From sequence record MN655999: a DNA stretch of 64,000 bases. The stretch is one strand, 5' to 3'. Below are positions 6,924-42,386 of the stretch, piece by piece. The first letter of the stretch is position 1, and each line of letters opens with the position of its first letter. The DNA is from Shigella phage Z31. The translations under genes were made by a program, and so were the position numbers. The notes under the pieces are model-generated. The model was not told where the DNA came from. It worked only from the letters and a program-made list of their open reading frames with translations, and searched no databases.

Positions 6924-7709
6924 TTAGTTCTTTGCGTCTAAGAAGGTAACTTCATGTGAAGAGAAAATTTCCTCAACATCCTCATCAGTTCTTGCATAGA
7001 TATATGTATCTGCATCACTGCCAAATGTTACTGCAATTCTGTGATTGCTCTTCGACAGGTAGGTAACTAGAGCGTTACTTAGAGACATCTTTTCAACCGG
7101 AGGGTTACTTTGATGTATCTTACCTTTTCTTCGTCTGAAGAGGGTAACTGCATCATCAGTGAACACTACTACACCTGCAAAATATTCTGGTTCACAGTAG
7201 TTCTTCCAACCTGAGCGTAACTTGTGGTACATCTCTCCTTCGTAGACATACAGGTAAACATCTACGCTCTTCATCACCTGATTAATGATAACTGTGACGG
7301 CTTGAGGGTCTAGCCCACCGATACCTGCGCCAATCATAGGTAACCCAACTTTCTTCAACTGATTGACTTCACAGTATCTGTTAAGCTGTTTCAAAGATGA
7401 CTCTAAAGCACTGTATCGGGCATCTTTACCAGTCTTAAGCTGAGTGTAAAGGTTAGCTATACGGCCTTGTTCTAAACGTGCTACAGAGAAATTACCTAGT
7501 AAATTTTCACAGGGTTTGTGGCCTATACCACCTGCATACAGATAAACCTCTGTATCAGTCTCATATGCTTTTGGGTAAAGTTTAGAAATCTTGTCAGCGA
7601 TACCTGCACCCATTAAGTTCATACAGTTGCAACCGTGACCAATGATATCAAACTTACCTTTATCAAATGCGGAGAAGATATCCCCATTGATTATTTTTAC
7701 AATACCCAT
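6924..7709 (-). CDS. macro-domain protein (ADP-ribose binding/processing) with about 110-aa C-terminal extension
   Basis: N-terminal motifs GDIFSAF, HGCNCMNLMGAGIADKI and PMIGAGIGGLDP match macrodomain signature blocks. Confidence 0.65.
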   Translation of the reverse strand: MGIVKIINGDIFSAFDKGKFDIIGHGCNCMNLMGAGIADKISKLYPKAYETDTEVYLYAGGIGHKPCENLLGNFSVARLEQGRIANLYTQLKTGKDARYSALESSLKQLNRYCEVNQLKKVGLPMIGAGIGGLDPQAVTVIINQVMKSVDVYLYVYEGEMYHKLRSGWKNYCEPEYFAGVVVFTDDAVTLFRRRKGKIHQSNPPVEKMSLSNALVTYLSKSNHRIAVTFGSDADTYIYARTDEDVEEIFSSHEVTFLDAKN

Positions 7710-11067: not shown

Positions 11068-11328
11068 TTACATTACGTAGAGATTCCCAAAACCTGTAGG
11101 TTTCCCATTACGAAAGTTACGACGCTTAACAGGTAACTTAGTGATAGTCTTCGTCTTCTCTAAGTCTATAAAGGTCTGTGTAAAATCCGATGGGAGATAT
11201 TTTTTACCAAACTTTGCAGAGAGGTATTCTGCTACTTCGTATTGTGTAGCTGCCCCCAGATACTTGAGAGCAACTCTTACCATCATCTTTTTAACTTGCA
11301 TATCAGTCCTTATAAGCTCTAAATGCAA
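11068..11328 (-). CDS. hypothetical protein (86 aa)
   Basis: ORF track. Confidence 0.45.
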   Translation of the reverse strand: MHLELIRTDMQVKKMMVRVALKYLGAATQYEVAEYLSAKFGKKYLPSDFTQTFIDLEKTKTITKLPVKRRNFRNGKPTGFGNLYVM

Positions 11329-12142
11329 CGTCGGCTTGTGACATTACATAACCTTGAAACACACCACCATTCTGGTCATACTGGGTCTTCATGGCATCTA
11401 AGAAGCTGCTTACAGACTCATCATCATCACGGTAGTCCAACCAGAACTTTGTAGCCTTTTCAGGGTTTTCTTTGAAGCTCTTAAGCATTGCTGCCATAAT
11501 TGGAGCGGAGTACTTTTTACGAAGTTCGCACTTCTGCTTAACACCGTTCACAGTCTTCTCTTTATACTTATCCATCTCATCCTTATCAATACCTAGTGCA
11601 TCAATAAGTTTAAGTTCTTCTTGATAGAGTACAAATGCTTCATCAAGGCATCCACGAAGCCCTAATAATGCCCACACACCAGCACCAGTAAACTTCTTGG
11701 TGAATGCTGTCTGTGGCTTATATCCAGAGCGTAGTATTGCAGTTGTAATTTGGTCACCATTCGTAGCTCGTGAGTCCAGTGAGTTTTCTTGGTCGTAGAG
11801 GAAATCTACTTCTTCCTGTGAATTAACAGCAAACAGGGTCACATAGACAAGGCCGTTCTTGGGAGCACCTAATTTACCATTCTTCCAGTTCTCTACACGA
11901 GCATGAGAATCAATGTTGATAACTTCTCCATTGAATAGTACACCCGTAACACGGGAACGTAAATCCACCTCACGAAGGTCTTCATTAAGATATGGTTTTG
12001 TAATACGTCGCTCGATGCTACGGTTTGCTGAGTAAGGTTTTGCACAGTTAGCCCAGTCCATGTACCCCATGAAGAATGAGGCTACACCACAAACGAAATC
12101 AATCTTACAAGGTGTTTTGCTCTGGAACTCTTTGAATTTCAT
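11303..12142 (-). CDS. hypothetical protein (279 aa)
   Basis: ORF track. Confidence 0.5.
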   Translation of the reverse strand: MKFKEFQSKTPCKIDFVCGVASFFMGYMDWANCAKPYSANRSIERRITKPYLNEDLREVDLRSRVTGVLFNGEVINIDSHARVENWKNGKLGAPKNGLVYVTLFAVNSQEEVDFLYDQENSLDSRATNGDQITTAILRSGYKPQTAFTKKFTGAGVWALLGLRGCLDEAFVLYQEELKLIDALGIDKDEMDKYKEKTVNGVKQKCELRKKYSAPIMAAMLKSFKENPEKATKFWLDYRDDDESVSSFLDAMKTQYDQNGGVFQGYVMSQADVAFRAYKD

Positions 12143-12197
12143 GATTACTCTCTCATCTACTTGGTTTGTTTACAGGTATACTACACACATTCTTTTA

Positions 12198-13097
12198 TTA
12201 ATGCAAATGTTTTTCTAGGGTTTCTATGATTTCTTGTGAGTTGATAGAGCCTGCATAACTCAGTGCAAAACCATCTCTTAAATCTTCGAACCAATCCTGT
12301 TTGATTGCTGAGTAAAGCCCTTCTATGTGAGGCTCGATAAATTGTTTCACAGACACCTTATCTTTATCTGGTTCAAAGACCTTCACAGTACCAGCCTTAC
12401 GACCATGTGTAATAATCGTGAACAAATCTTTACCATCTAGTTTACCTAAAACACCAACTGGCTGCTCTTTACCGTCAATCTTGTGACATGGTGGCCTGTA
12501 TAGTGTGAATTTCTCACGCTTATAGACTCTTACACCATCAACTATCACAGGGACAATCTTACAAGTTTTATCTGTCCGCTTTTGTCTCTTCCAGATTTGG
12601 AAGTTACAGCGTAGTGACGACTCTTTTGCTGAGTAGGTAACTCCATCAATCCTTTCAAAATGAAGGTTAGGTAGTTCTACTTCGTCAATGCAGGTGTACT
12701 CTCTGCTAAGTCTGCTAAGATTCTTCTTCCCAAAGTTAATAGGAACTAAGAAGCAAATGTAGTCTGGATTCATTGTAGCAGCCTTGTTAAAGAACTTTGT
12801 AGACAGACTATTTGCCTTACCGAATGGAGGGTTGGTAACAATCGCAAAAGGTTTATCTGGAATCTCTAAGTCATCTTTCAGGAAGTCTCTTGCACTAACA
12901 TCTTCAGAGTCTGGTTCGATGTCGTATAGCACAACATCTTGACAAACCCTCTTAAAAGAATCTTTCCATCTTCCGTCACCTGCACAGGGGTCTATAATGC
13001 ACGAAATAGAGCCTTTAAAGACCTTTTGTAGCTTATCTTCACACACTCTTATTACTTCATCTGGTGTGTAATATTTATCAAGTTCTGCTTTAGCCAT
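12198..13097 (-). CDS. DNA N6-adenine/N4-cytosine methyltransferase (orphan)
   Basis: Motif I IDPCAGDGRW and catalytic motif IV VTNPPFG. Confidence 0.8.
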   Translation of the reverse strand: MAKAELDKYYTPDEVIRVCEDKLQKVFKGSISCIIDPCAGDGRWKDSFKRVCQDVVLYDIEPDSEDVSARDFLKDDLEIPDKPFAIVTNPPFGKANSLSTKFFNKAATMNPDYICFLVPINFGKKNLSRLSREYTCIDEVELPNLHFERIDGVTYSAKESSLRCNFQIWKRQKRTDKTCKIVPVIVDGVRVYKREKFTLYRPPCHKIDGKEQPVGVLGKLDGKDLFTIITHGRKAGTVKVFEPDKDKVSVKQFIEPHIEGLYSAIKQDWFEDLRDGFALSYAGSINSQEIIETLEKHLH

Positions 13098-17624: not shown

Positions 17625-19406
17625 TTAAAGCTGCTTGTCAATATTATTTCGAATATCACCAAGAGTTGTGTAACCGAACTGCTCAGAGTCACTAAAGACT
17701 AAACGTAAAGCACAAGCTGGATGTTCAAGCACATCTGCAAAGCTCTGGAATCCATAGCCATCTACAGCTTTCAGCTTATCGCCATCCCACATAGGTGCTA
17801 CACCACCAAAAGCAGACTTCTTAACACCGCTATCTGTTTTAGGGTCTTTTGCAAGCATAATCTCTTTACCACCAATGCTTGCAAGAGTTGCTTTGACAGC
17901 AAATGCAAAGGTGTCACGAGTCATGTACTGGTAAGTGTAAGAACCTACACCAAACACTACGTTAGAGCTTGCAAAACCCATTTCATACAAACGCTTCAGG
18001 ATTTCGTTTGCACGTTCCAACGTGATAGAGTCACCATAGATAAGGCCAATGTGCTCATCCAGTACCTTAAAGCCTTTAGAGTTGATAGTCCCTCCAAAGA
18101 TGTTATACAGGTTCTTAATAGCTCCATCAATCTCTGCTACAGGACGTGTTACAACGTTTGCAGAACCAACCATATAAGCATTTTTCAACATCACTGTATC
18201 AGCAACTTCAAAGTCTTCTCTGTCAACAACCATCTCGTAGCCTTCTGACAGTAGCCACCCAGCAATACCATAGTTGATGTTTTCAAGCTTCATGTTCAGA
18301 ACAGCATTCAACATTGTGTCGCTGGCTTCCATCTTGCTTAGGTGTTCGTAATAAGCCTTTTTAGCACACTCTAAGTGGATTGCTTTATAGCCTGTGACAA
18401 TATGTACAGGGTCTCCAGAGTCAGGACGAATTACCAGTTTTCCATCACGTTCCATAATCTCTTTACGGAGTTCTGGCAATATGACTGATACAGTTCTCCA
18501 GAAATTATAAGTATCTGAAACAACACTTGCAATACCAGTTGGGTAAGTTTCTGTTAAGAAGCGACGGAAGGTTTGTAACTCACCTTTAAAACGTCTTTCA
18601 TCTTCAATTAACTCATTACCACCTTCCCAAGCAATGTTTGCACACATTACAGAGTGTTCAGTGGCTGGCACAGAACTACCAATATCAGAGATTGGGTAGG
18701 ACTGTCCATAGATGCGTTTAGCTGTATACACAGCAGGGAAGCTGTCAGTTCCTTTAAAGCTGGTTAAGTGACCTACAGCGTTAAATGCGTCATCAGTAAA
18801 GCCAGACATACCACGCATAGCAAAGTCATGGCACTGATAAGGTAAATGCAAGTCGTTGTCACAAGTAAGGTCAGCCCACTTCTTACAGATACGTTTGTAG
18901 TGCAATGCAATAGTTGCAATGGTACAAGCCTTCCAAATCTCAGCAGAGAAAGCATCTTCTAGATACCCCGCTACCCAATGGAAACCTGAAACAGTGTTCT
19001 GGAAGACAATCATTGGTACACGCATAGGGACAACTGTGCCTTCTTCTACAGCATATACTTCAACTGGTAGATAACCTAAGTCGTGGAGTGCTTCCCAATG
19101 TTCTCGACCAATAGCATCTTTGCCCAGAACACCGTTCATGACTTCTAAGATTTCGTCAATTGCTTCTTTTTTGTCACGTTCAAAGAAGGTGGCGTTCCAG
19201 TGGTCTATCAAGTAATCTTTAACAAAACGTTGAATACCAAAAGCTACTACACCGTCAATTGCTAAAGGGCTGTTAAACCATTTATCACTACGTGGTGTTA
19301 GGTTCAGCATAAGATACTGTGTGGCATCTGGATACTGATATATATGTGATGCCTTGTAAGCATCTGCATTAAGGCCTGCTGGTACTGCGTAAAGTGACTT
19401 ACTCAT
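17625..19406 (-). CDS. nicotinamide phosphoribosyltransferase-family enzyme (NAMPT-like; candidate nicotinamide ADP-ribose transferase)
   Basis: NAMPT signature segments AYKASHIYQYP, FKGTDSF, SVPATEHS, IRPDSGDP; 593 aa, longer than typical NAMPT. Confidence 0.85.
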   Translation of the reverse strand: MSKSLYAVPAGLNADAYKASHIYQYPDATQYLMLNLTPRSDKWFNSPLAIDGVVAFGIQRFVKDYLIDHWNATFFERDKKEAIDEILEVMNGVLGKDAIGREHWEALHDLGYLPVEVYAVEEGTVVPMRVPMIVFQNTVSGFHWVAGYLEDAFSAEIWKACTIATIALHYKRICKKWADLTCDNDLHLPYQCHDFAMRGMSGFTDDAFNAVGHLTSFKGTDSFPAVYTAKRIYGQSYPISDIGSSVPATEHSVMCANIAWEGGNELIEDERRFKGELQTFRRFLTETYPTGIASVVSDTYNFWRTVSVILPELRKEIMERDGKLVIRPDSGDPVHIVTGYKAIHLECAKKAYYEHLSKMEASDTMLNAVLNMKLENINYGIAGWLLSEGYEMVVDREDFEVADTVMLKNAYMVGSANVVTRPVAEIDGAIKNLYNIFGGTINSKGFKVLDEHIGLIYGDSITLERANEILKRLYEMGFASSNVVFGVGSYTYQYMTRDTFAFAVKATLASIGGKEIMLAKDPKTDSGVKKSAFGGVAPMWDGDKLKAVDGYGFQSFADVLEHPACALRLVFSDSEQFGYTTLGDIRNNIDKQL

Positions 19407-19420
19407 ATTTTATCTCTCTC

Positions 19421-19912
19421 TTAGTTATGTCTTGCAAACTCACCATGAAGTTCTATTCGCTTTTTAATTACAGCTTCTTTTGCTTCTTCTACCGTTTTAA
19501 ATCTTCCACAAAAGTATTCTTTATGGTAAAGCATGACTCTTGCTTTGTAAAGACCTGTTTGTTTACAAAAACTTACACCCTTCACACCAGTTTTATTGTT
19601 CTTTTGTATACCCCTATTCCTCTGGTTTTGTGACTTTGTGCTAAGTCTTAAGTTCTCCAACTTATTATTAGTTTTATCAAGGTCTATGTGGTCTATCTCA
19701 TATCCACTTGGTATCTCACCCCCAGACATAATCCATGCAATATTATGTGCATAGTACCTCTTCTTATTTATCTGGACTTGGATATAACCCTTCTTAGACC
19801 TTGTGCCAGCCACATTACCAGCAATAGCGGTACTGCAAAGGGTTACTCTCCAAATTAATAAACCTGTATCTGGTTCATATATTAGGTATTTTTCAAAATA
19901 ACCCTTATTCAT
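19421..19912 (-). CDS. HNH homing endonuclease with AP2 DNA-binding domain
   Basis: HNH block YEIDHIDLDKTNNKLENLR; AP2-like KTGVKGVSF...YKARV..GRFKTVEEAKEA. Confidence 0.8.
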   Translation of the reverse strand: MNKGYFEKYLIYEPDTGLLIWRVTLCSTAIAGNVAGTRSKKGYIQVQINKKRYYAHNIAWIMSGGEIPSGYEIDHIDLDKTNNKLENLRLSTKSQNQRNRGIQKNNKTGVKGVSFCKQTGLYKARVMLYHKEYFCGRFKTVEEAKEAVIKKRIELHGEFARHN

Positions 19913-19920
19913 ACTGTTAC

Positions 19921-20820
19921 CTAGTCCAAATTTGCTACAGTAACTTGACCATAATGTGTTAAACCACGGTCTTTAGCTTCCCCTAAAGAGTTTGTAGTGT
20001 AGATGTGGTCAATACCATTGTCAAGAAGGTTTTCAACACCTTTAGAGAAGATACCATGTGTTACATAGAGTTCCACACGTTTTGCACCTGCTTCACGAAG
20101 ATGTTTAGCTGCTTCTATGAAGGTTCGACCACCATCACAGATATCATCAAGAATCATGACAGTTTTATCTGTCAAATCCACATCATCAAGGATTCGCATA
20201 CCAGTAATTTCACCAGTCTTAAGGTTACGTACTTTAGACATTGTGATGTATGGTTTATCCACCTCTTTAGCAGTCTCTTCAGTCTTCTTAGCTGCACCTG
20301 CATCTGGGGCTACTAAGTAATCAACTAGAGGGTCATTCGCATAGTGGACTGCAATCTCCTTTTGGGGGATACTCTGGAAGCAGTTAAACAGGTTATCTGG
20401 TACATAACTGTGAGAGTCAACTGCACAGACTGCATCGAAACCCATTGCATTAATCTGTTGTGCAAACACTTTCAAAGCTGCTGCATCACCTTTAAACATG
20501 TGACGGTCGTAACGCGCATTTGGCAAATAGTAAAAGATGGCAGTCTTCATAGCAAACTTATGAGGTACTAAGTTGTCTACCGCCTCTTTAGCAAGTGCCA
20601 CAGCAAACAATGTATCTTTATCATAACCTTTTACAATCATAATCACATTGTTGATAGATGATGCTGCATAAGCAGTAAAATCAACAAACTCTGGTGAAAA
20701 GTGTCCACCAATCTCACCAGAAGGGAATTGGATGATGTTAAACTCTTCTTCATGAGTCCCTTTAGTTGGTGAATGAACTGTAACACGAATAGATGTCTTC
20801 ATAGTTTTTCTCTCAATCAA
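19921..20820 (-). CDS. ribose-phosphate pyrophosphokinase (Prs)-family enzyme (candidate ADP-ribose pyrophosphokinase)
   Basis: Type I PRTase/PRPP-binding loop VMILDDICDGGRTF; 299 aa. Confidence 0.85.
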   Translation of the reverse strand: MIERKTMKTSIRVTVHSPTKGTHEEEFNIIQFPSGEIGGHFSPEFVDFTAYAASSINNVIMIVKGYDKDTLFAVALAKEAVDNLVPHKFAMKTAIFYYLPNARYDRHMFKGDAAALKVFAQQINAMGFDAVCAVDSHSYVPDNLFNCFQSIPQKEIAVHYANDPLVDYLVAPDAGAAKKTEETAKEVDKPYITMSKVRNLKTGEITGMRILDDVDLTDKTVMILDDICDGGRTFIEAAKHLREAGAKRVELYVTHGIFSKGVENLLDNGIDHIYTTNSLGEAKDRGLTHYGQVTVANLD

Positions 20821-21118
20821 AAGTTACGTTTGTTACTGCCATTGCAGATTTGCATTTTGCAGGGTCTACAACGTGATAAAGTACACTACAGTTACCTGTG
20901 CTGTCTGGTACAGGTTTGACCCATTGATGCTTTATAGTTGGCTCTCCTAAATCTTTGTAAGAGCCATCTGTAAAATTGTTTACCGTCTCAAGTGCAATTG
21001 GTTCTGGGACATGACCACGTATCATGTACATCTCACAGCCGTTACCACCTTCACTCACTAATGGTAGAATCTCCCACTTCTCTTTAGCCATTGTAAGTTG
21101 CCCTATAAACTGTCTCAA
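20813..21118 (-). CDS. hypothetical protein (101 aa)
   Basis: ORF track. Confidence 0.4.
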   Translation of the reverse strand: MRQFIGQLTMAKEKWEILPLVSEGGNGCEMYMIRGHVPEPIALETVNNFTDGSYKDLGEPTIKHQWVKPVPDSTGNCSVLYHVVDPAKCKSAMAVTNVTFD

Positions 21119-21599
21119 ACTTCAACAGGAGAGATATTGCCAAATCTGTATAGTTGTTGTCAAGTACATCTGGCATATTATTTTTGATATACCTCTCTTG
21201 CTCTTCATAGGTCATCTTAGGAGTGCTTAGAAGGCTATCTCCTTGCTTCTGGTTATCAGCTTTAGTTTGGATAAACCAGTTTGCGCAGTGATGTTCACCA
21301 CCTTTTGTAACAGGCTTGTGGTGACCTAATGTGAAGGATTGACTACCTGTGTATCTGCAAAGTTTATTGAGAACTGTAATGGTGTTCTTCACAACAAAAC
21401 ATTCATACAGGTTATCTATAGTGTAGTGTGGGTAATAGCGGAATAGTGCTCTTTCACGAGTACTCTCACGATTCCAGAGAATCATGTGATTTGAGTTAGA
21501 AGGGTCGTATTGGTGGGAGTCAATGAACTCTTGACGTTCCTCAAAGCTGAGTCTTAGAACTGACATTGCAGCCGAACGTTTCAGGTTTGACAGATACAT
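21084..21599 (-). CDS. HNH-family endonuclease-like protein
   Basis: LGHHKPVTKGGEHHCANW...TKADNQKQG resembles HNH core. Confidence 0.55.
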   Translation of the reverse strand: MYLSNLKRSAAMSVLRLSFEERQEFIDSHQYDPSNSNHMILWNRESTRERALFRYYPHYTIDNLYECFVVKNTITVLNKLCRYTGSQSFTLGHHKPVTKGGEHHCANWFIQTKADNQKQGDSLLSTPKMTYEEQERYIKNNMPDVLDNNYTDLAISLLLKFETVYRATYNG

Positions 21600-21650
21600 T
21601 TTATCTCCAAAATAAAAAGGGAACCTTTACAGTCCCCTTATAGTATCTGT

Positions 21651-21971
21651 TTACTGAGCTACTTTCAAGATGCTTGTAAATGAGATTTCACTCTCATCCA
21701 TAAACTCTTTTGCTTCTCCAGTAACTTTTACAAAGTTATCTAGGCAGATAATCTTCTTATCTTTCTTGCTGTAGGTTAGCTTAACCTTTTCAATATCTTT
21801 CTTAGAGCTTTTCTCTTCATTGAAGAGTTTTACAGCCTCTTTAAATGGTAGATATGAGCCGTCATTGTCACTAATGAACCCTGTACCACAATAGTAGTAG
21901 TTATACTCTTTAGCCATAAACTGGCACAGTACGAAAATCTGTAATTTACGAGTATTATAAACTTTGTTCAT
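21651..21971 (-). CDS. hypothetical protein (106 aa)
   Basis: ORF track. Confidence 0.45.
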   Translation of the reverse strand: MNKVYNTRKLQIFVLCQFMAKEYNYYYCGTGFISDNDGSYLPFKEAVKLFNEEKSSKKDIEKVKLTYSKKDKKIICLDNFVKVTGEAKEFMDESEISFTSILKVAQ

Positions 21972-23804: not shown

Positions 23805-25949
23805 TTACATAGAAACCCTGTCACGAATCTCAGCAATTTTTGCATCATTCATTCGGGATTCACCTTTAATCTTAGTCCATCCAAGATAACCACACACCCT
23901 GTTAATCACAGAGATATCATGTGAATGGCAAACCTCACATTCTTCAACATCAGCCTTTGGTCTGTTACCACAATGTTCACAGATTGCTAAGTCAAAGTTA
24001 AGTCCCTGATAAAAACCTTTCAACATGCCTCTTGTAATACAACTTTTAAGTGCTGGTAAGTTTTCTGGGTTAGCTACCCTTACATACTGGATTCTGCCAC
24101 CTCTACAGATATGGAAGAATGGCTCTTCTAAGTCCTGCTTCTCAAATGGTGAGATGTCTGCTGCAACATTCATATGGAAACTGTTTGTAAAGTATTCCTT
24201 GTCAGAAACTCCTTTAATAACACCAAACATATCTCTGAACTGTTTTAGCTGAGTTCCACACAATGACTCTGCTGGAGTGCCATAGACTGCATACAGGAAA
24301 CCATCTTCATTCTTAAACTCTTCAGTTTTCATGTTAATGTATGCTAGAACATCGTATGCAAAACTAGAACTTCCAACTTCATGAAGTCGTTTACCTTCAG
24401 CAAGAACAGATAACTCATCAAGAGCAGTAACCCCAAAAGAAGCTGTGAAGGACTTCACGATATCCCAACCAACCTTGTCAGTAGGTTTCTTAGTTCCTTT
24501 GTACAATCCTCCTTGTGTGAATGCCAGAGGGTTAGAACTTGCTGGCATATTGGCAATCATTTCGTAACGTTTCTTATGGAAGCTGCGAATCATTTCTAGG
24601 TACTTATCAAGCTCTTTCCAGAAATCTAAACCATTCTCTTTAGAATACTGGTAAATCATTGGTAAGTTCAAAGATACAGCACCAATGTTAGCACGACCAA
24701 CGTAGAACTCTTCTCCATTCTCGTTAAGATATGGGGATAAGAAAGCTCTGCAACCCATCGGTGAAATTACCTTGCCAGAACGCTCAAAAGCCTCTGCTAC
24801 AGCACCGTGACCAGATACGCTTAAGAAATCTGGATACATCGCTTTAGAGCAACACTCAATAGCTTTACTGTACAAGTGGCCTTGACAGATATTTTCATCA
24901 TGTCTCTTCTGGTCATGAATATAAACCAGTTTAGGGAATACAACAGGCTTCTTACTCTTACCTTGTCCATTCATGCGAACATCAAGAATGGTGTTTGCAA
25001 TCATATATTGCAGTCGGTTGTCTTCATTAGACATATCTGAGTCAAGTAATCCGAATGTCAAAGTTGTAAATGCGAAATCACCACGGCTACAAGGTACAGT
25101 ATTTAGTTTCATTTCGAGTGACTGGAAACCCTGAGTTAATTCAAGCTGTAGCTGCTCCATGACATAATTGTGGTAATGTTCTTTAGGAATACCGTAAGAT
25201 GCTGCTTTCTCAGCATGATAGCGTAGAGACTTCTTAGCATACGGTACAAGCACCTTATCAATCTCTGCTAAAGTAAAACCGCCAAATTGCTGTGCAGTTG
25301 CTGAAAGAACTACATCACCGATAACTTGTAAGGCTGACAGTACAGACTTCGGTTCACAGTATTCGATGCCAGACATTTCAAAGCCACCTTTCAGTACTTT
25401 ACCAATGTCGAACAGGCAACAGTTAATCCCACCAAAAATTAGGTCTCTTAAGTCATGGATGTAGATAAACCCTTTTTCAATGGCTTCGAGTTCCTCTGGT
25501 GTTAAATGGTATTGTTTAAAGATTTCTTTAGTCAGATAGCCACGAATAATTGAACCTTTTGTAGAAATTAAACTGCTGTCAAAGTTAGCATTTTCACGGT
25601 CACCTAAGAAGAGTGTGTCTTTAGTCTTTTGGTAAAGCTCATCCCAATTTTGAGCAACCTCTTTACGGTAATTTCTATATGTTGAGTAAGACTCATAAAT
25701 CTCGTGATTGACTTCTGCCAAAGCACCTTCAACGATACTGTGGATATCATTTACCGAGATGAGTAAGTTATTCTGCTTAGTGGACTTTACCAGAATCCTC
25801 ATAAATGCTGATTCAAGTGCTTGGGTAACATCTGGTGGAAGTTCTTTATACCCAACTCTGTTAGCTGACTTAGTTACTGCTGCTAAAACTTTTTTGATAT
25901 CCGGTTCTTCAAGTGAGCCATTCTTTTTAATAATTTGTACTTTGTTCAT
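23805..25949 (-). CDS. nrdD: anaerobic ribonucleoside-triphosphate reductase
   Basis: N-terminal ATP-cone-like segment; C-terminal Cys cluster CEHCGN...CEVC and glycyl-radical motif RVCGYLG. Confidence 0.9.
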   Translation of the reverse strand: MNKVQIIKKNGSLEEPDIKKVLAAVTKSANRVGYKELPPDVTQALESAFMRILVKSTKQNNLLISVNDIHSIVEGALAEVNHEIYESYSTYRNYRKEVAQNWDELYQKTKDTLFLGDRENANFDSSLISTKGSIIRGYLTKEIFKQYHLTPEELEAIEKGFIYIHDLRDLIFGGINCCLFDIGKVLKGGFEMSGIEYCEPKSVLSALQVIGDVVLSATAQQFGGFTLAEIDKVLVPYAKKSLRYHAEKAASYGIPKEHYHNYVMEQLQLELTQGFQSLEMKLNTVPCSRGDFAFTTLTFGLLDSDMSNEDNRLQYMIANTILDVRMNGQGKSKKPVVFPKLVYIHDQKRHDENICQGHLYSKAIECCSKAMYPDFLSVSGHGAVAEAFERSGKVISPMGCRAFLSPYLNENGEEFYVGRANIGAVSLNLPMIYQYSKENGLDFWKELDKYLEMIRSFHKKRYEMIANMPASSNPLAFTQGGLYKGTKKPTDKVGWDIVKSFTASFGVTALDELSVLAEGKRLHEVGSSSFAYDVLAYINMKTEEFKNEDGFLYAVYGTPAESLCGTQLKQFRDMFGVIKGVSDKEYFTNSFHMNVAADISPFEKQDLEEPFFHICRGGRIQYVRVANPENLPALKSCITRGMLKGFYQGLNFDLAICEHCGNRPKADVEECEVCHSHDISVINRVCGYLGWTKIKGESRMNDAKIAEIRDRVSM

Positions 25950-27821: not shown

Positions 27822-30056
27822 CTAAACACCACAACCCTCGCAATAAGCATCTTGCAGTGCAGATTTACCTACACCAATGCGACTGTTAAGATAGTACATG
27901 GTTTTCATACCTACTGAGTTGGCATAAATCATGTACTTCAAAGCTTGAGCCAATGATACCTTCTTAGACTTTGCATAGTCAACATAGAAATCTGAAGAGA
28001 TAGCTTGACCAGTGAACTTTTGAACAATTGCATAACAATCAATCAGGTCAAAGGTGTCAATATCCCAAGCAATTTCATAGACATACTTCAACTCTTCGTA
28101 ATCTGGAACAATAAACAGTACGTTACCAGTTGCAGACTTTTTAGTTAAAATAAAGTCACGAATTGGGTACAAACCATTTGTTGTATTAGTTGCCAGTGAA
28201 GAACTCTCATTAGGCATGTAAGCTTCTAATACAGAGTTACGGATTCCACCATTTTCTTTAATACGTTGTGCTAAGTCATCCCAATCATAACGAAGTTTTG
28301 CATCATGCTTCTCATCAATCTTCCTGTTAGCTGTTTTCGGAGGAACCCAACCTTCAGGATACTTAGTGAACTGCATATACTCAGGTACACCACGTTCTTT
28401 AGCAAGTCTTAAAGAAGCTTCGTGTAAGTAGTAAGAGTGCATTTCAGCAAGCTCATGAAGCTTCGTCTTACCTGCTCTTGAAGAGTAGTTCACGTAGTTT
28501 TTCGCAAGGTAATGAGCCACATTTGTAAGGCCAATCCCAACAGAACGACGCTTCTGAACATGGTTACGCATCGACGGATACGGATAATCCATAAGGTCAA
28601 TAACGGAGTCAACCATTGCAAGAGCATAATAAGCAACGTCAGCGTATTCATCTTCTGAAATTCTCCCTGCAACCAAACTAGCTAGGAAGCAAAGAGCTAC
28701 CTCACCATCCTCTTTCACAGCATCATCTCTGTAAAGGTCTGTCTCTTTCTCAAAGCCGTACACTGGCAACACAATTTCCATACAAAGATTTGACATCTTC
28801 AAAGGTTCTTTAAATGGTGTATGTGTGTTTGCATTGTTTGTGAAGAATGGATACACACGGCCTGTTGCATAACGCTGCTGGATAAACAGTTTAGCAATTT
28901 CACGAGCCTTTACTCGTCTGTGCTTAACACCTGAATGCACTGCATGACCAACTGCCATAGCAAACTCATCAGCAGATGCTGTGTAGAACATGTCATAGAG
29001 CTTTGGTGCATCCTTGTAAGAGAATAACAACCAGTCTGTATCATATTGAACACACTGCCAGAAGTAATCATTTGTACCAAATGAGTAGTCCATCTCGTTA
29101 ATACGTTTCGAAGGAACCGTTGTAGGGTGCTTCAAACGCAGTAAATCTTCAATCTGTGGGTCGAGAGCAGTGTAGAAGTTGTTAGCTGAACCACCACGGC
29201 TCTTTTGTTTGTTTGCCTCTACAGATGAACGTACAAGCTTGTAATAAGGCAGTTTACCCATGTGCTCAATAGTATTTTGACGGATACCATCGCCAATAGT
29301 GCGAGTCTCCATCAGCATCCCAATACCAGCTTGCTTTGTAGTCATATCATAAGCAACCTTTGCAGCAATACCGAGTGATTCAGCGGTATCATTCGCTTTA
29401 ATCAAACAGCATGACGCATAACCTGATTTAGTAGCTCTTAAACCATTCAGATAAGGCGTAGGAGCATTAATCTTCAGGTCAGATAGGTAAGTGTACAGCT
29501 TGATAACATCTTGCAGTCTACGGTGCTTTGGTTGCTTCTCAAAGGCTTTCATAGCCATACCCATAAACATAAATTGTGGTGACTCAAAAAGTCTTCCCGT
29601 TTTAATATCACGGATACCATACTTGTCTCTGAACTGTTTCAGGACTGCATAACCGTAAGAGATATCTTTTGAGTGCACAATGTACCCTTGCAGGTATTCA
29701 AGCTCTTCCTGAGAATAGTCCATCTTCTCCCAAAGTCCTGCTCTCTCCATATTTTTAACGAAGGTAACCAGCGTAGGAACTTTAGTAAAGCCTCCAAAGG
29801 CTTCTTTGTAGATAATCCCCAGAAGTAGCCGCCCAGCCATGTCTGAGTACTCTTGAGTTTGCTTATCAACACAAACATCAATCATGGCTTGGTGCATCTC
29901 TTTTGTAGTGCAACCTTCATAGACACGTTTCATGGCTTCCATAGTGACTTCTGACCAGATAATACCACGCTTATCTGCCCATGATGCCCACTTATTCAGT
30001 CTTTCTGGGTCAAAGTTTACTACTGTACCGTTTGATTTTTTAATTGTCTTAATCAT
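27822..30056 (-). CDS. nrdA: ribonucleoside-diphosphate reductase alpha subunit
   Basis: 744 aa; N-terminal ATP-cone-like region; C-terminal CEGCGV tail. Confidence 0.9.
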   Translation of the reverse strand: MIKTIKKSNGTVVNFDPERLNKWASWADKRGIIWSEVTMEAMKRVYEGCTTKEMHQAMIDVCVDKQTQEYSDMAGRLLLGIIYKEAFGGFTKVPTLVTFVKNMERAGLWEKMDYSQEELEYLQGYIVHSKDISYGYAVLKQFRDKYGIRDIKTGRLFESPQFMFMGMAMKAFEKQPKHRRLQDVIKLYTYLSDLKINAPTPYLNGLRATKSGYASCCLIKANDTAESLGIAAKVAYDMTTKQAGIGMLMETRTIGDGIRQNTIEHMGKLPYYKLVRSSVEANKQKSRGGSANNFYTALDPQIEDLLRLKHPTTVPSKRINEMDYSFGTNDYFWQCVQYDTDWLLFSYKDAPKLYDMFYTASADEFAMAVGHAVHSGVKHRRVKAREIAKLFIQQRYATGRVYPFFTNNANTHTPFKEPLKMSNLCMEIVLPVYGFEKETDLYRDDAVKEDGEVALCFLASLVAGRISEDEYADVAYYALAMVDSVIDLMDYPYPSMRNHVQKRRSVGIGLTNVAHYLAKNYVNYSSRAGKTKLHELAEMHSYYLHEASLRLAKERGVPEYMQFTKYPEGWVPPKTANRKIDEKHDAKLRYDWDDLAQRIKENGGIRNSVLEAYMPNESSSLATNTTNGLYPIRDFILTKKSATGNVLFIVPDYEELKYVYEIAWDIDTFDLIDCYAIVQKFTGQAISSDFYVDYAKSKKVSLAQALKYMIYANSVGMKTMYYLNSRIGVGKSALQDAYCEGCGV

Positions 30057-31741: not shown

Positions 31742-32239
31742 TCAAGCACAGTTTGCTTTCATTACCTTATGGATTCTTTTTTCAGCATCTTCATAAGTTT
31801 CTTTAGTGATAAACTTAATTGCTGCAATATTGGCATTGTAGAAGAGTCTGAGCTTAGAGTCAATCCTTTTTGTCATTACATCGAATTTATGTTGGAGGTT
31901 TGCTTCACCATAAACTAGACCACCTTTCGTGTAGTAGGTTTGTATAATGTAAAAGTCAAAAAATTCTTTTCCAAAGCTCTCAATATCTTTTTTAATATAC
32001 TCAGAAGAAGTCTCATAAGTCATCCAATCACTCTCCTTAGTGACTACCTTCTTCCGAGTCTTGCCAGCAACTTTTCTTTTGGTCACGCTATTAAGCTGTT
32101 TCTTTCCAATATAATATTGTCCGGTTTTCTTACAGTGTACTAAGTAGACAAAACCAAAATGTTTAGTGGGGTCAACTTCCCCACATAAAGATACCCAATG
32201 ACCATAGGTAGGACAATTGCCAAATCCTTTAATCTTCAT
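31742..32239 (-). CDS. GIY-YIG-like nuclease domain protein (possible homing endonuclease)
   Basis: FGFVYLVHCKKTGQYYIGKK resembles the GIY..YIG module. Confidence 0.5.
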   Translation of the reverse strand: MKIKGFGNCPTYGHWVSLCGEVDPTKHFGFVYLVHCKKTGQYYIGKKQLNSVTKRKVAGKTRKKVVTKESDWMTYETSSEYIKKDIESFGKEFFDFYIIQTYYTKGGLVYGEANLQHKFDVMTKRIDSKLRLFYNANIAAIKFITKETYEDAEKRIHKVMKANCA

Positions 32240-41852: not shown

Positions 41853-42386
41853 ATGGATTTTATTTTACAAAAACGTTTAAAGGAGCTGCTACACTATGAC
41901 CCCGAAACAGGGGTCTTTACTTGGCTTCGTAGAGAAGGTAAATCAAGAGCTGTTAGTGTTTTTAACAGTAATTATGCAGGAAAGGTGGCAGGTAATATCC
42001 AGACTGATTCAAGTGGTCATAAACAGATTAGTATCTATTTTGACAAGAAAGCACATAAAGCACACAGACTCGCATGGCTTTACGTGTATGGCAAGATGCC
42101 AAAAGGCATCATTGACCATATCAACGGAGACTCACTTGACAACAGGATTGTAAACTTAAGGGAAGCAGATGACTTTCAAAGTGCTTGGAATAAAGGTAAG
42201 CCAGTCACCAATAAATCTGGGTACAAGGGTGTAAGTCTTAAGAAGAAGTCTGGTAAGTGGGTCGCACAGATAAGTTATAGAGGTAAGAAGATGTTTTTAG
42301 GTTATCATGACACACCTGAAGAAGCCCATAAAGCTTACTGTGAAGCTGCTGTGAAACTCCACGGAGAGTTTGCAAAACTAAGTTGA
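41853..42386 (+). CDS. HNH homing endonuclease with AP2 domain (paralogue of 19421-19912)
   Basis: IIDHINGDSLDNRIVNLR; AP2-like YKGVSLKKKSGKWVAQISYRGKKMFLGYHDTPEEAHKAY; shared C-terminus LHGEFA. Confidence 0.8.
   Translation: MDFILQKRLKELLHYDPETGVFTWLRREGKSRAVSVFNSNYAGKVAGNIQTDSSGHKQISIYFDKKAHKAHRLAWLYVYGKMPKGIIDHINGDSLDNRIVNLREADDFQSAWNKGKPVTNKSGYKGVSLKKKSGKWVAQISYRGKKMFLGYHDTPEEAHKAYCEAAVKLHGEFAKLS

Follow-up and report, generated by a model that had tools for sequence, protein, structure and literature searches.

A predicted NARP1 NAD+ reconstitution module with a homing endonuclease gene in its intergenic spacer in a Felixounavirus

Gene content and layout of the locus

The DNA analysed here (the window) is a 64-kb stretch of a phage genome of ~88 kb. 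It matched 260 phage records, the top match at 95%, and derives from a Felixounavirus whose DNA is ~95% identical to that of Escherichia phage vB_EcoM_D4 (D4). The ORF list places three intact minus-strand ORFs at 17625-20820, as an earlier note made from the letters alone had described: a NAMPT-like gene, an HNH gene, and a Prs-like gene spanning 19921-20820 (299 aa) when read from a TTG codon. All the motifs quoted in that note were located, namely VMILDDICDGGRTF at window 20119-20160 and, in the 593-aa protein, AYKASHIYQYP (aa 16-26), FKGTDSF (aa 217-223), SVPATEHS (aa 245-252), and IRPDSGDP (aa 326-333). The family of the Prs-like gene stood, but its 299-aa length is probably slightly too great: the gene likely begins at the ATG at 20802, because a GAGAG ribosome-binding site lies upstream of this codon, the TTG at 20820 falls within the end of the preceding ORF, and the annotated genes of relatives are 882 nt long. 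We refer to the Prs-like and NAMPT-like genes as adps and namat henceforth (Table 1).

Table 1. Features of the module and its flanks, in window coordinates
Feature	Position	Strand	Basis
namat: nicotinamide ADP-ribose transferase, predicted, 593 aa	17625..19406	-	NAMPT-family, orthologue of Bas63 gp80
Recoded 5' tract of namat, linked to HNH gene	19307..19406	-	allele comparison, dS
Free-standing HNH_3 + AP2 homing endonuclease gene, predicted, 163 aa	19421..19912	-	HNH_3/AP2 Pfam, phrog_99
adps: ADP-ribose pyrophosphokinase (ADPR-PP synthetase), predicted, 293 aa	19921..20802	-	Prs-family, orthologue of Bas63 gp79
Two upstream ORFs of no known function	20813..21599	-	positions homologous to Bas63 genes 77-78
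Terminator-like hairpin just past namat stop codon	17590..17613	-	10-bp stem, 5 GC pairs, T-rich tail; consensus match only
Terminator-like hairpin upstream of module	21617..21639	-	9-bp stem, T tail

The two enzyme genes share one strand and are separated by 514 nt holding the HNH gene alone, which starts 8 nt past the adps stop and ends 14 nt ahead of the namat start. Around the module, the flanks are the same as in Escherichia phage JohannRWettstein (Bas63, MZ501086), also a Felixounavirus, running from NrdD/NrdG through rIIA/rIIB. The hairpin upstream of the module probably closes the preceding transcription unit, and a promoter-like site lies beside it at 21668-21640. The two upstream ORFs, adps, the HNH gene, and namat could thus form one transcription unit. 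These upstream ORFs encode proteins of 171 aa (21084-21599, phrog_3500) and 92 aa (20813-21091, phrog_4726), for which no informative Pfam family was found. They were considered as conserved NARP1 partners, a role that found no support: the 92-aa family is restricted to Felix O1-like phages, and in phage muut, which carries the 171-aa family, no annotated Adps or Namat gene lies within 5 kb.

Family membership and active-site residues of the two enzymes

Pfam searches assigned the 593-aa protein to NAPRTase (E 1.5e-34) and NAMPT_N (E 9e-6), the Prs-like protein to Pribosyltran (E 1.2e-11) and Pribosyl_synth (E 2.3e-9), and the middle gene to HNH_3 (E 2.8e-19). These three family assignments far exceed chance. 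The earlier note had proposed profile and structure comparison for telling Adps from Prs and Namat from Nampt; in this comparison, the NAMPT-family protein sided with Namat rather than Nampt, and the Prs-family protein fell apart from Prs.

The window Namat is 97% identical to Bas63 gp80. Its top solved structures in the PDB are those of the Namat of Bacillus phage SPbetaL1 (9W5W/9W5X, E 7e-129), whereas Nampt structures scored worse (bacterial 7YQO, 1e-50; human NAMPT, ~1e-41), so that the SPbetaL1 structures beat any Nampt by ~80 orders of magnitude. The catalytic core, taken from F189, D215, the catalytic His, R306, and D308 of SPbetaL1 Namat, is kept as F195, D221, H251, R327, and D329, and the residues contacting NAD+ in the SPbetaL1 crystal structure are all conserved or conservatively replaced. 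The SCH signature, published as a marker of ADPR-PP selectivity through its adenine-clamp residues, was found as GSYTYQYMTRD at aa 488-498, which fits the Namat-specific pattern GSx-x-x-TRD; in the alignment, its Y490 and Y494 take the places of F392 and Y396. In the SCL, where the published pattern is an Arg, or a Lys or Tyr followed by a stacking residue, the window Namat carries Lys42-Trp43, identical to Bas63 Namat, in which the residue following the Lys has been modelled as stacking on adenine. One PHROG profile, phrog_12872, covers Adps-like and Namat-like halves, which implies that fused forms exist.

The window Adps shows 81% identity to Bas63 gp79 and 35% identity (E 3e-28) to the biochemically characterised SPbetaL1 Adps. 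Its K190, in the motif SKVRN, aligns with the catalytic K162 of the SPbetaL1 enzyme, which corresponds to K197 of B. subtilis Prs, and this Lys column is invariant across a five-sequence Adps alignment. Only the broad ribP_PPkin subfamily model was cleared (125 vs 113 bits), and the protein scored below every NCBIfam Prs equivalog cut-off, the best being 104.7 bits against 296. By these identities and profile scores, the window Adps belongs with the phage Adps proteins and apart from the Prs of cells.

The endonuclease gene and allelic variation in the spacer

The HNH gene matched phrog_99 (HNH endonuclease) at 1e-68, and its AP2 match was weak (E 5e-4; 20.8 bits vs the Pfam cut-off of 33.3 bits). 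It has no obvious ribosome-binding site, and a paralogue with 36% identity adjoins the DNA polymerase at 41853-42386. As a NARP1 accessory of the Adpp or RyDEP kind, the gene was rejected, as only HNH_3 and AP2 domains and HNH-endonuclease PHROGs were matched. From its domain content and its patchy presence among relatives, it is predicted to be a selfish free-standing homing endonuclease outside the NAD+ pathway. The earlier note had described it as splitting the module and as unusual in this position. Both statements call for correction: the insertion lies in the intergenic spacer and interrupts neither enzyme gene, and 61 of the 217 related phage records carry the HNH gene at exactly the same site. 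It is absent from Bas63, wV8, KhF2, warpig, and EC6, where the spacer measures 45/46 nt, and where present it stands in place of a conserved hairpin (GGGGCT...AGCCCC) in the 45-nt adps-namat spacer.

The insertion is linked to a recoded tract at the 5' end of namat, in which dS reaches 1.69 vs 0.25 in the remaining gene. The three HNH-carrying genomes compared are 95-100% identical to one another over this allele, whereas four genomes lacking the HNH gene have another, to which it is only ~75% identical. It occurs in 94 records vs 61 for the HNH gene itself, and EC6 is an HNH-less carrier. The recoded tract is probably a co-conversion or target-immunity tract, to judge from this pattern. A second difference from Bas63 lies in the first ~500 nt of adps, where the window and Bas63 share 62-73% nucleotide identity. 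We considered the HNH insertion as the cause of the low Adps identity to Bas63 and rejected it, because the divergence falls in the distal 5' half of adps and Bas63 is the outlier, the window allele being common to the seven non-Bas63 genomes compared. Among HNH-carrying genomes, namat had a dN/dS of 0.03 and adps one of 0.06-0.09; both enzyme genes are under strong purifying selection. The natural contrast between HNH-plus and HNH-minus alleles could be used to ask whether losing the hairpin between the two genes shifts the Adps:Namat ratio.

NAD+ reconstitution, its alternatives, and related systems

The orthology and gene order shared with Bas63 genes 79-80 bear out the reading proposed in the earlier note, and the region very probably encodes NAD+ reconstitution pathway 1 (NARP1) with a selfish HNH gene in its spacer. 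In this pathway, a host NADase effector of the SIR2, TIR, or SEFIR type would cut NAD+ into ADP-ribose and nicotinamide, Adps would pyrophosphorylate ADP-ribose with ATP to give ADPR-PP, and Namat would join nicotinamide to ADPR-PP, yielding NAD+ directly. NAD+ would be regrown in this way without an NMN adenylyltransferase and without host NadR or PncC. The HNH gene would have invaded the 45-nt spacer; the two enzyme ORFs are intact, and each keeps its ribosome-binding site.

From the literature come the reaction chemistry and the anti-defence phenotype of Bas63 and SPbetaL1; the present analysis adds orthology, catalytic and selectivity residues, operon anatomy, HNH polymorphism, and purifying selection. 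NARP1 was first found in the Bas63 operon of genes 79-80; without them, Bas63 forms ~20-fold fewer plaques on cells with SIR2-HerA, metabolomics showed ADPR-PP only with wild-type Bas63 plus the defence system, and protection was kept in a host deleted for both pncC and nadR (Osterman et al., bioRxiv 10.1101/2024.02.11.579819). The in vitro chemistry is from the SPbetaL1 enzymes, Bas63 Adps never having been purified. By analogy, we infer that the enzymes of the source phage behave in the same way. The finding is a recognition of a published system: the pathway was already known and was first found in the same genus.

A classical salvage route was weighed against this reading and appears highly improbable. 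In it, the Prs-like enzyme would supply PRPP, which the NAMPT-like enzyme would combine with nicotinamide to form NMN, leaving host NadR or PncC to complete NAD+. Database names speak for it: nearly all deposited relatives are labelled 'ribose-phosphate pyrophosphokinase' and 'nicotinamide phosphoribosyltransferase', and the window Namat scores 469 bits with an NCBIfam equivalog model named 'nicotinate phosphoribosyltransferase', above its cut-off of 405. In vitro, SPbetaL1 Namat can also turn PRPP into NMN if no ADPR-PP is supplied; offered both donors, however, it makes NAD+ only, and the window protein has the adenine-clamp residues that confer the preference for ADPR-PP. SPbetaL1 Adps gave no product in a PRPP-synthetase assay and formed ADPR-PP from ADP-ribose and ATP, and its window counterpart fails all Prs equivalog cut-offs. 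Moreover, Bas63 still overcomes SIR2-HerA when the host lacks both pncC and nadR, the very genes on which salvage would draw.

Even less credible is a crippled module, in which the HNH insertion has uncoupled or silenced namat, through a polar effect or the loss of a spacer element, and the genes are decaying. The replaced spacer hairpin and the lack of an obvious ribosome-binding site for the HNH gene count in its favour, but adps and namat are both full-length ORFs in which every key residue is kept, namat retains its ribosome-binding site GAGAGAGA, the same arrangement is kept in 61 genomes, and the low dN/dS of both genes in HNH-carrying genomes is at odds with decay.

As a NARP1 module, the locus resembles that of Bas63 in genus, genomic position, adps-then-namat order, gene lengths (882 and 1782 nt), and SCL and SCH clamp residues, which are identical. 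It differs from the Bas63 locus in its spacer, which in Bas63 is 45 nt long, holds a GC hairpin, and lacks the HNH gene, and in carrying other alleles over the 5' part of adps described above and over the opening ~100 nt of namat (75%). The same two-enzyme chemistry would be expected as in SPbetaL1 NARP1 (PMC12774641); the Adps catalytic Lys and the Namat SCH are kept. In SPbetaL1, adps and namat abut, unlike in the window. Compared with SPbetaL1 Namat, the window protein has ~100 additional residues, with insertions near aa 258-278 and 353-427, and its SCL loop is four residues longer and has Lys-Trp in place of Arg. A third gene between or beside adps and namat is also found in NARP1-AP, which comprises Adps, the Macro-domain phosphatase Adpp, and Namat (e.g. 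Vibrio phage Gary; bioRxiv 10.64898/2026.01.28.702374), and in the RyDEP-containing NARP1 of phage DyoEdafos (bioRxiv 10.64898/2026.05.28.727677); Vibrio phages Dax and K412 have the order adps-Macro-namat. Unlike in those systems, the gene inserted in the window encodes an HNH homing endonuclease and not a Macro or RyR-domain enzyme. NARP2 and the NadV-NatV pair of KVP40 likewise use a NAMPT-family enzyme for phage NAD+ restoration, but NARP2 (Nampt plus a bifunctional Nmnat) needs Nmnat and uses PRPP, whereas no Nmnat was found in the window and its NAMPT-family protein groups with Namat structures.

The earlier claim that the window lacks an NMNAT-like gene agrees with a Pfam scan, which detected no cytidylyltransferase/NMNAT family in 32 scanned window proteins; nor is an NMNAT annotated in D4, the closest genome, or in Bas63. 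A 165-aa 'NAD synthetase' (phrog_447) annotated in the closest genome was considered as a hidden NMNAT and rejected: its window counterpart (31742-32239) is a SegE-type GIY-YIG domain protein (Pfam E 9.4e-28). This label and those on adps and namat need correcting; a reader of the sequence alone can spot the NARP1 module despite the misleading 'Prs/NAMPT' database names. For Felix O1-like therapeutic phages, resistance to SIR2-, TIR-, and SEFIR-based NAD+ depletion is to be expected. A tRNA scan of the window found none.

The sole Macro-domain protein of the window (261 aa, 6924-7709) lies ~10 kb from the module, and no Macro domain was found among the neighbours within two genes of adps and namat. 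It is doubtful that this protein acts as a distal ADPR-1''-phosphate phosphatase (Adpp), making NARP1-AP in trans. If true, this would let Felixounavirus NARP1 defeat aRES-type NAD+ phosphorolysis, and published surveys would have overlooked the protein because they covered just two genes around NARP1. It could also, or instead, be an AdfM-like anti-DarTG2 DNA ADP-ribosylglycohydrolase; the Macro protein, Adpp, and AdfM are about equidistant in sequence (28-34% identity).

Identity of the adps–namat pair

Three closely spaced minus-strand ORFs were found in the ORF list at 17625–20820 of the window. The motifs cited in the earlier note for the NAMPT-like and Prs-like proteins were all present where it had placed them. 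The Prs-like gene was likewise confirmed, but not its length of 299 aa: translation most likely starts at the ATG at 20802, for a product of 293 aa. This ATG is preceded by GAGAG, orthologues in relatives are annotated as 882 nt, and the TTG at 20820 falls inside the 3' end of the preceding ORF. The surrounding order (NrdD, NrdG, small ORFs, adps, namat, three small ORFs, rIIA, rIIB) is the usual Felixounavirus layout. The 4.6-kb region is matched by 260 phage records, nearly all Felix O1-like (Escherichia, Salmonella, Shigella, Citrobacter), with vB_EcoM_D4 (D4) as the top match (95%).

Features of the module and related loci (window positions unless stated otherwise)
Feature	Position	Strand	Match or remark
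Terminator-like hairpin	21639–21617		Upstream of 171-aa ORF
Prs-like protein (Adps)	End 19921	-	Pfam Pribosyltran, E 1.2e-11; Pribosyl_synth, E 2.3e-9
163-aa protein	19421–19912	-	Pfam HNH_3, E 2.8e-19; AP2, E 5e-4 (weak, under Pfam's cut-off)
593-aa protein (Namat)	17625–19406	-	Pfam NAPRTase, E 1.5e-34; NAMPT_N, E 9e-6
Terminator-like hairpin	17613–17590		Directly after namat
Macro-domain protein, 261 aa	6924–7709	-	Pfam E 1.3e-7, Macro N-terminal
SegE-type GIY-YIG endonuclease domain, 165 aa	31742–32239	-	Pfam E 9.4e-28
Second HNH_3+AP2 gene	41853–42386	+	36% identical to NARP1-site gene; adjoins DNA polymerase gene
Empty-site spacer with hairpin	Bas63 28629–28673		Also in HNH-less relatives compared

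NAD+ reconstitution pathway 1 (NARP1) was first described in the BASEL phage Bas63 (JohannRWettstein), genes 79–80 (Osterman et al., bioRxiv 10.1101/2024.02.11.579819). Bas63 lacking both genes plated ~20-fold lower on SIR2-HerA cells, ADPR-pyrophosphate (ADPR-PP) was seen only when wild-type Bas63 infected defence-carrying cells, and protection was independent of host PncC/NadR (bioRxiv 10.1101/2024.02.11.579819). Bas63 (MZ501086) is a Felixounavirus in which gene 79 (882 nt) and gene 80 (1782 nt) lie in the same context as adps and namat of the window; gp80 is 97% identical to the 593-aa protein and gp79 81% identical to the 293-aa protein. Judged from this shared context and identity, the pair is therefore an orthologue of the type-example NARP1, which supports the NAD+-reconstitution reading of the earlier note. 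NARP1 is already known, and Felixounavirus is the genus of its discovery.

The observation that the window holds no NMN adenylyltransferase-like gene was upheld: a Pfam scan of 32 window proteins returned no NMNAT-type family. No phage carrying NARP1 together with NARP2, the Nampt–Nmnat route, has been reported in the literature. An annotated 'NAD synthetase' of D4 was considered as an NAD enzyme and rejected, its window homologue being the SegE-type GIY-YIG protein. The label in relatives derives from the name of phrog_447, and its spread could mislead surveys of NAD pathways.

Adps and Namat compared with Prs and Nampt

Profile comparison with bona fide Prs placed Adps far under every NCBIfam Prs equivalog cut-off (e.g. 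105 vs 296); the one model whose threshold it reached was that of the broad ribP_PPkin subfamily (125 vs 113 bits). The protein shares 35% identity (E 3e-28) with Adps of the Bacillus phage SPbetaL1, which forms ADPR-PP from ADP-ribose and ATP and gave no product in a PRPP-synthetase assay (bioRxiv 10.1101/2024.02.11.579819). K190 aligns with the mutated SPbetaL1 K162, the equivalent of B. subtilis Prs K197, in a column invariant in all five Adps sequences. Among 50,697 phage records, 1,341 have an Adps homologue. Since the single profile phrog_12872 (547 positions) spans both enzymes, matching Adps at 38–224 and Namat at 236–534, it implies that natural Adps–Namat fusions occur in some phages, independent support for functional coupling of the two enzymes.

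In the comparison of Namat with Nampt, the closest solved structures are the SPbetaL1 Namat crystals 9W5W/9W5X (E 7e-129), compared with E 1e-50 for a bacterial Nampt structure and about 1e-41 for human NAMPT. Through this alignment, the published NAD+-contact residues of SPbetaL1 were transferred to the window protein: D13 and Y15 correspond to D15 and Y17, F189 to F195, R192 to R198, D215 to D221, R306 to R327, D308 to D329, G360-D361 to G458-D459, G390-S391 to G488-S489, Y396 to Y494 and T398-R399-D400 to T496-R497-D498, with F392 replaced by Y490; the catalytic His corresponds to H251. The protein contains GSYTYQYMTRD, matching the published Namat-specific signature GS-x-Phi-x-Phi-x-Phi-TRD. 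The clamp variable loop K42-W43 of Bas63 Namat is identical in the window, and the residue after the clamp-loop Lys was modelled by the structure authors as the adenine-stacking one.

SPbetaL1 Namat is ~100 aa shorter, the window protein having two insertions at about aa 258–278 and 353–427. Compared with the crystallised protein they add ~15–20 and ~75 aa, and Bas63 shares both. Neither matched a Pfam family, and the word 'insertion' is absent from the main text of the SPbetaL1 Namat structure paper.

The HNH gene and allelic variation

In Bas63, wV8, KhF2, warpig and EC6, adps and namat are separated by a spacer of 45/46 nt, in place of which the window, D4 and skuden carry a 492-nt HNH gene. 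The gene occupies this site in 61 of 217 matching records of the phage collection, and proteins sharing 60% identity or more with its product occur in exactly 61 records; the other 3,823 matching records fall below 60%, the closest at 42% among the matches listed. The empty spacer holds a hairpin (GGGGCT-loop-AGCCCC, then ATTTT; -11.5 kcal/mol, z -1.9) whose stem is invariant among the HNH-less genomes compared, the loop alone being variable. This hairpin resembles a weak intrinsic terminator or an RNA-stability element within the operon; the HNH insertion took its place, and the hairpin is lost in HNH carriers, including the window.

The first ~100 nt of namat form a distinct allele common to the three HNH-carrying genomes compared (mutually 95–100% identical) and ~75% identical to that of four HNH-less genomes; dS is 1.69 here vs 0.25 over the remainder of namat. 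This allele occurs in 94 records, compared with 61 for the HNH gene, and EC6 carries it without the gene. The polymorphic site and the linked namat allele are marks of a free-standing homing endonuclease, and we infer that the HNH gene is one, with a co-conversion or target-immunity tract. Genomes with the HNH gene show a dN/dS of 0.03 in namat and 0.06–0.09 in adps, and namat of the window retains its ribosome-binding site GAGAGAGA; by these measures, the NARP1 module is not degraded by the insertion.

A separate allelic difference lies in the first ~500 nt of adps (20300–20802, minus strand), where the window and Bas63 share 62–73% nucleotide identity, compared with 100% directly upstream of the start codon; the breakpoint falls exactly at that codon. 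Bas63 is the outlier, with 69% identity to all seven other genomes compared; these share the window's allele, the window being 90–92% identical to them in this segment. Bands of tblastn identity suggest at least three adps allele classes in the genus. The segment is under purifying selection (dN/dS 0.11).

Extended NARP1 variants and neighbouring genes

Published extended operons include within NARP1 either Adpp, a Macro-domain phosphatase (bioRxiv 10.64898/2026.01.28.702374), or RyDEP, a RyR-domain glycosidase (bioRxiv 10.64898/2026.05.28.727677). In Vibrio phages Dax and K412, the order is adps–Macro–namat, whereas the intervening gene of the window is a putative selfish endonuclease; by gene content, the system is thus a plain NARP1 and not an extended variant. 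The window's distal Macro-domain protein carries the label 'phosphatase' in relatives and has a ~100-aa C-terminal extension with no assigned function. It is 34% identical (E 6e-24) to T4 Tk.4, lately named AdfM, which protects T4 from DarTG2, and 28% identical to the operon-embedded proteins of Dax (E 3e-15) and K412 (E 1e-12); Tk.4 and the Dax protein are themselves 34% identical (E 4e-22). As the three Macro proteins are roughly equidistant, sequence does not separate the two roles, and the window protein could be either an AdfM-like anti-DarTG2 factor or an ADPR-1''-phosphate phosphatase.

Given terminator-like hairpins at both ends, the 171-aa and 92-aa ORFs, adps, the HNH gene and namat may form a single transcription unit. 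The two upstream ORFs yielded no informative family by Pfam/PHROG and showed no linkage to NARP1 beyond the Felix O1-like phages. The 171-aa ORF (21084–21599, minus strand) has a weak HNH-endonuclease PHROG match (1e-4), and a DUF7390 ORF (21651–21971, minus strand) is annotated in relatives as 'putative HNH homing endonuclease'. NrdD is uninterrupted in the window (23805–25949) and split, endonuclease-containing in Bas63. A cassette of two genes (11303–13097, minus strand) separates rIIB from the neighbouring conserved gene; only 9 of 214 related records contain it, and both D4 and Bas63 lack it. One gene encodes a methyltransferase-like protein of 299 aa, with a weak N6_Mtase match and a match to phrog_799 DNA methyltransferase (2.5e-19); the product of the other has 279 aa and no assigned function.
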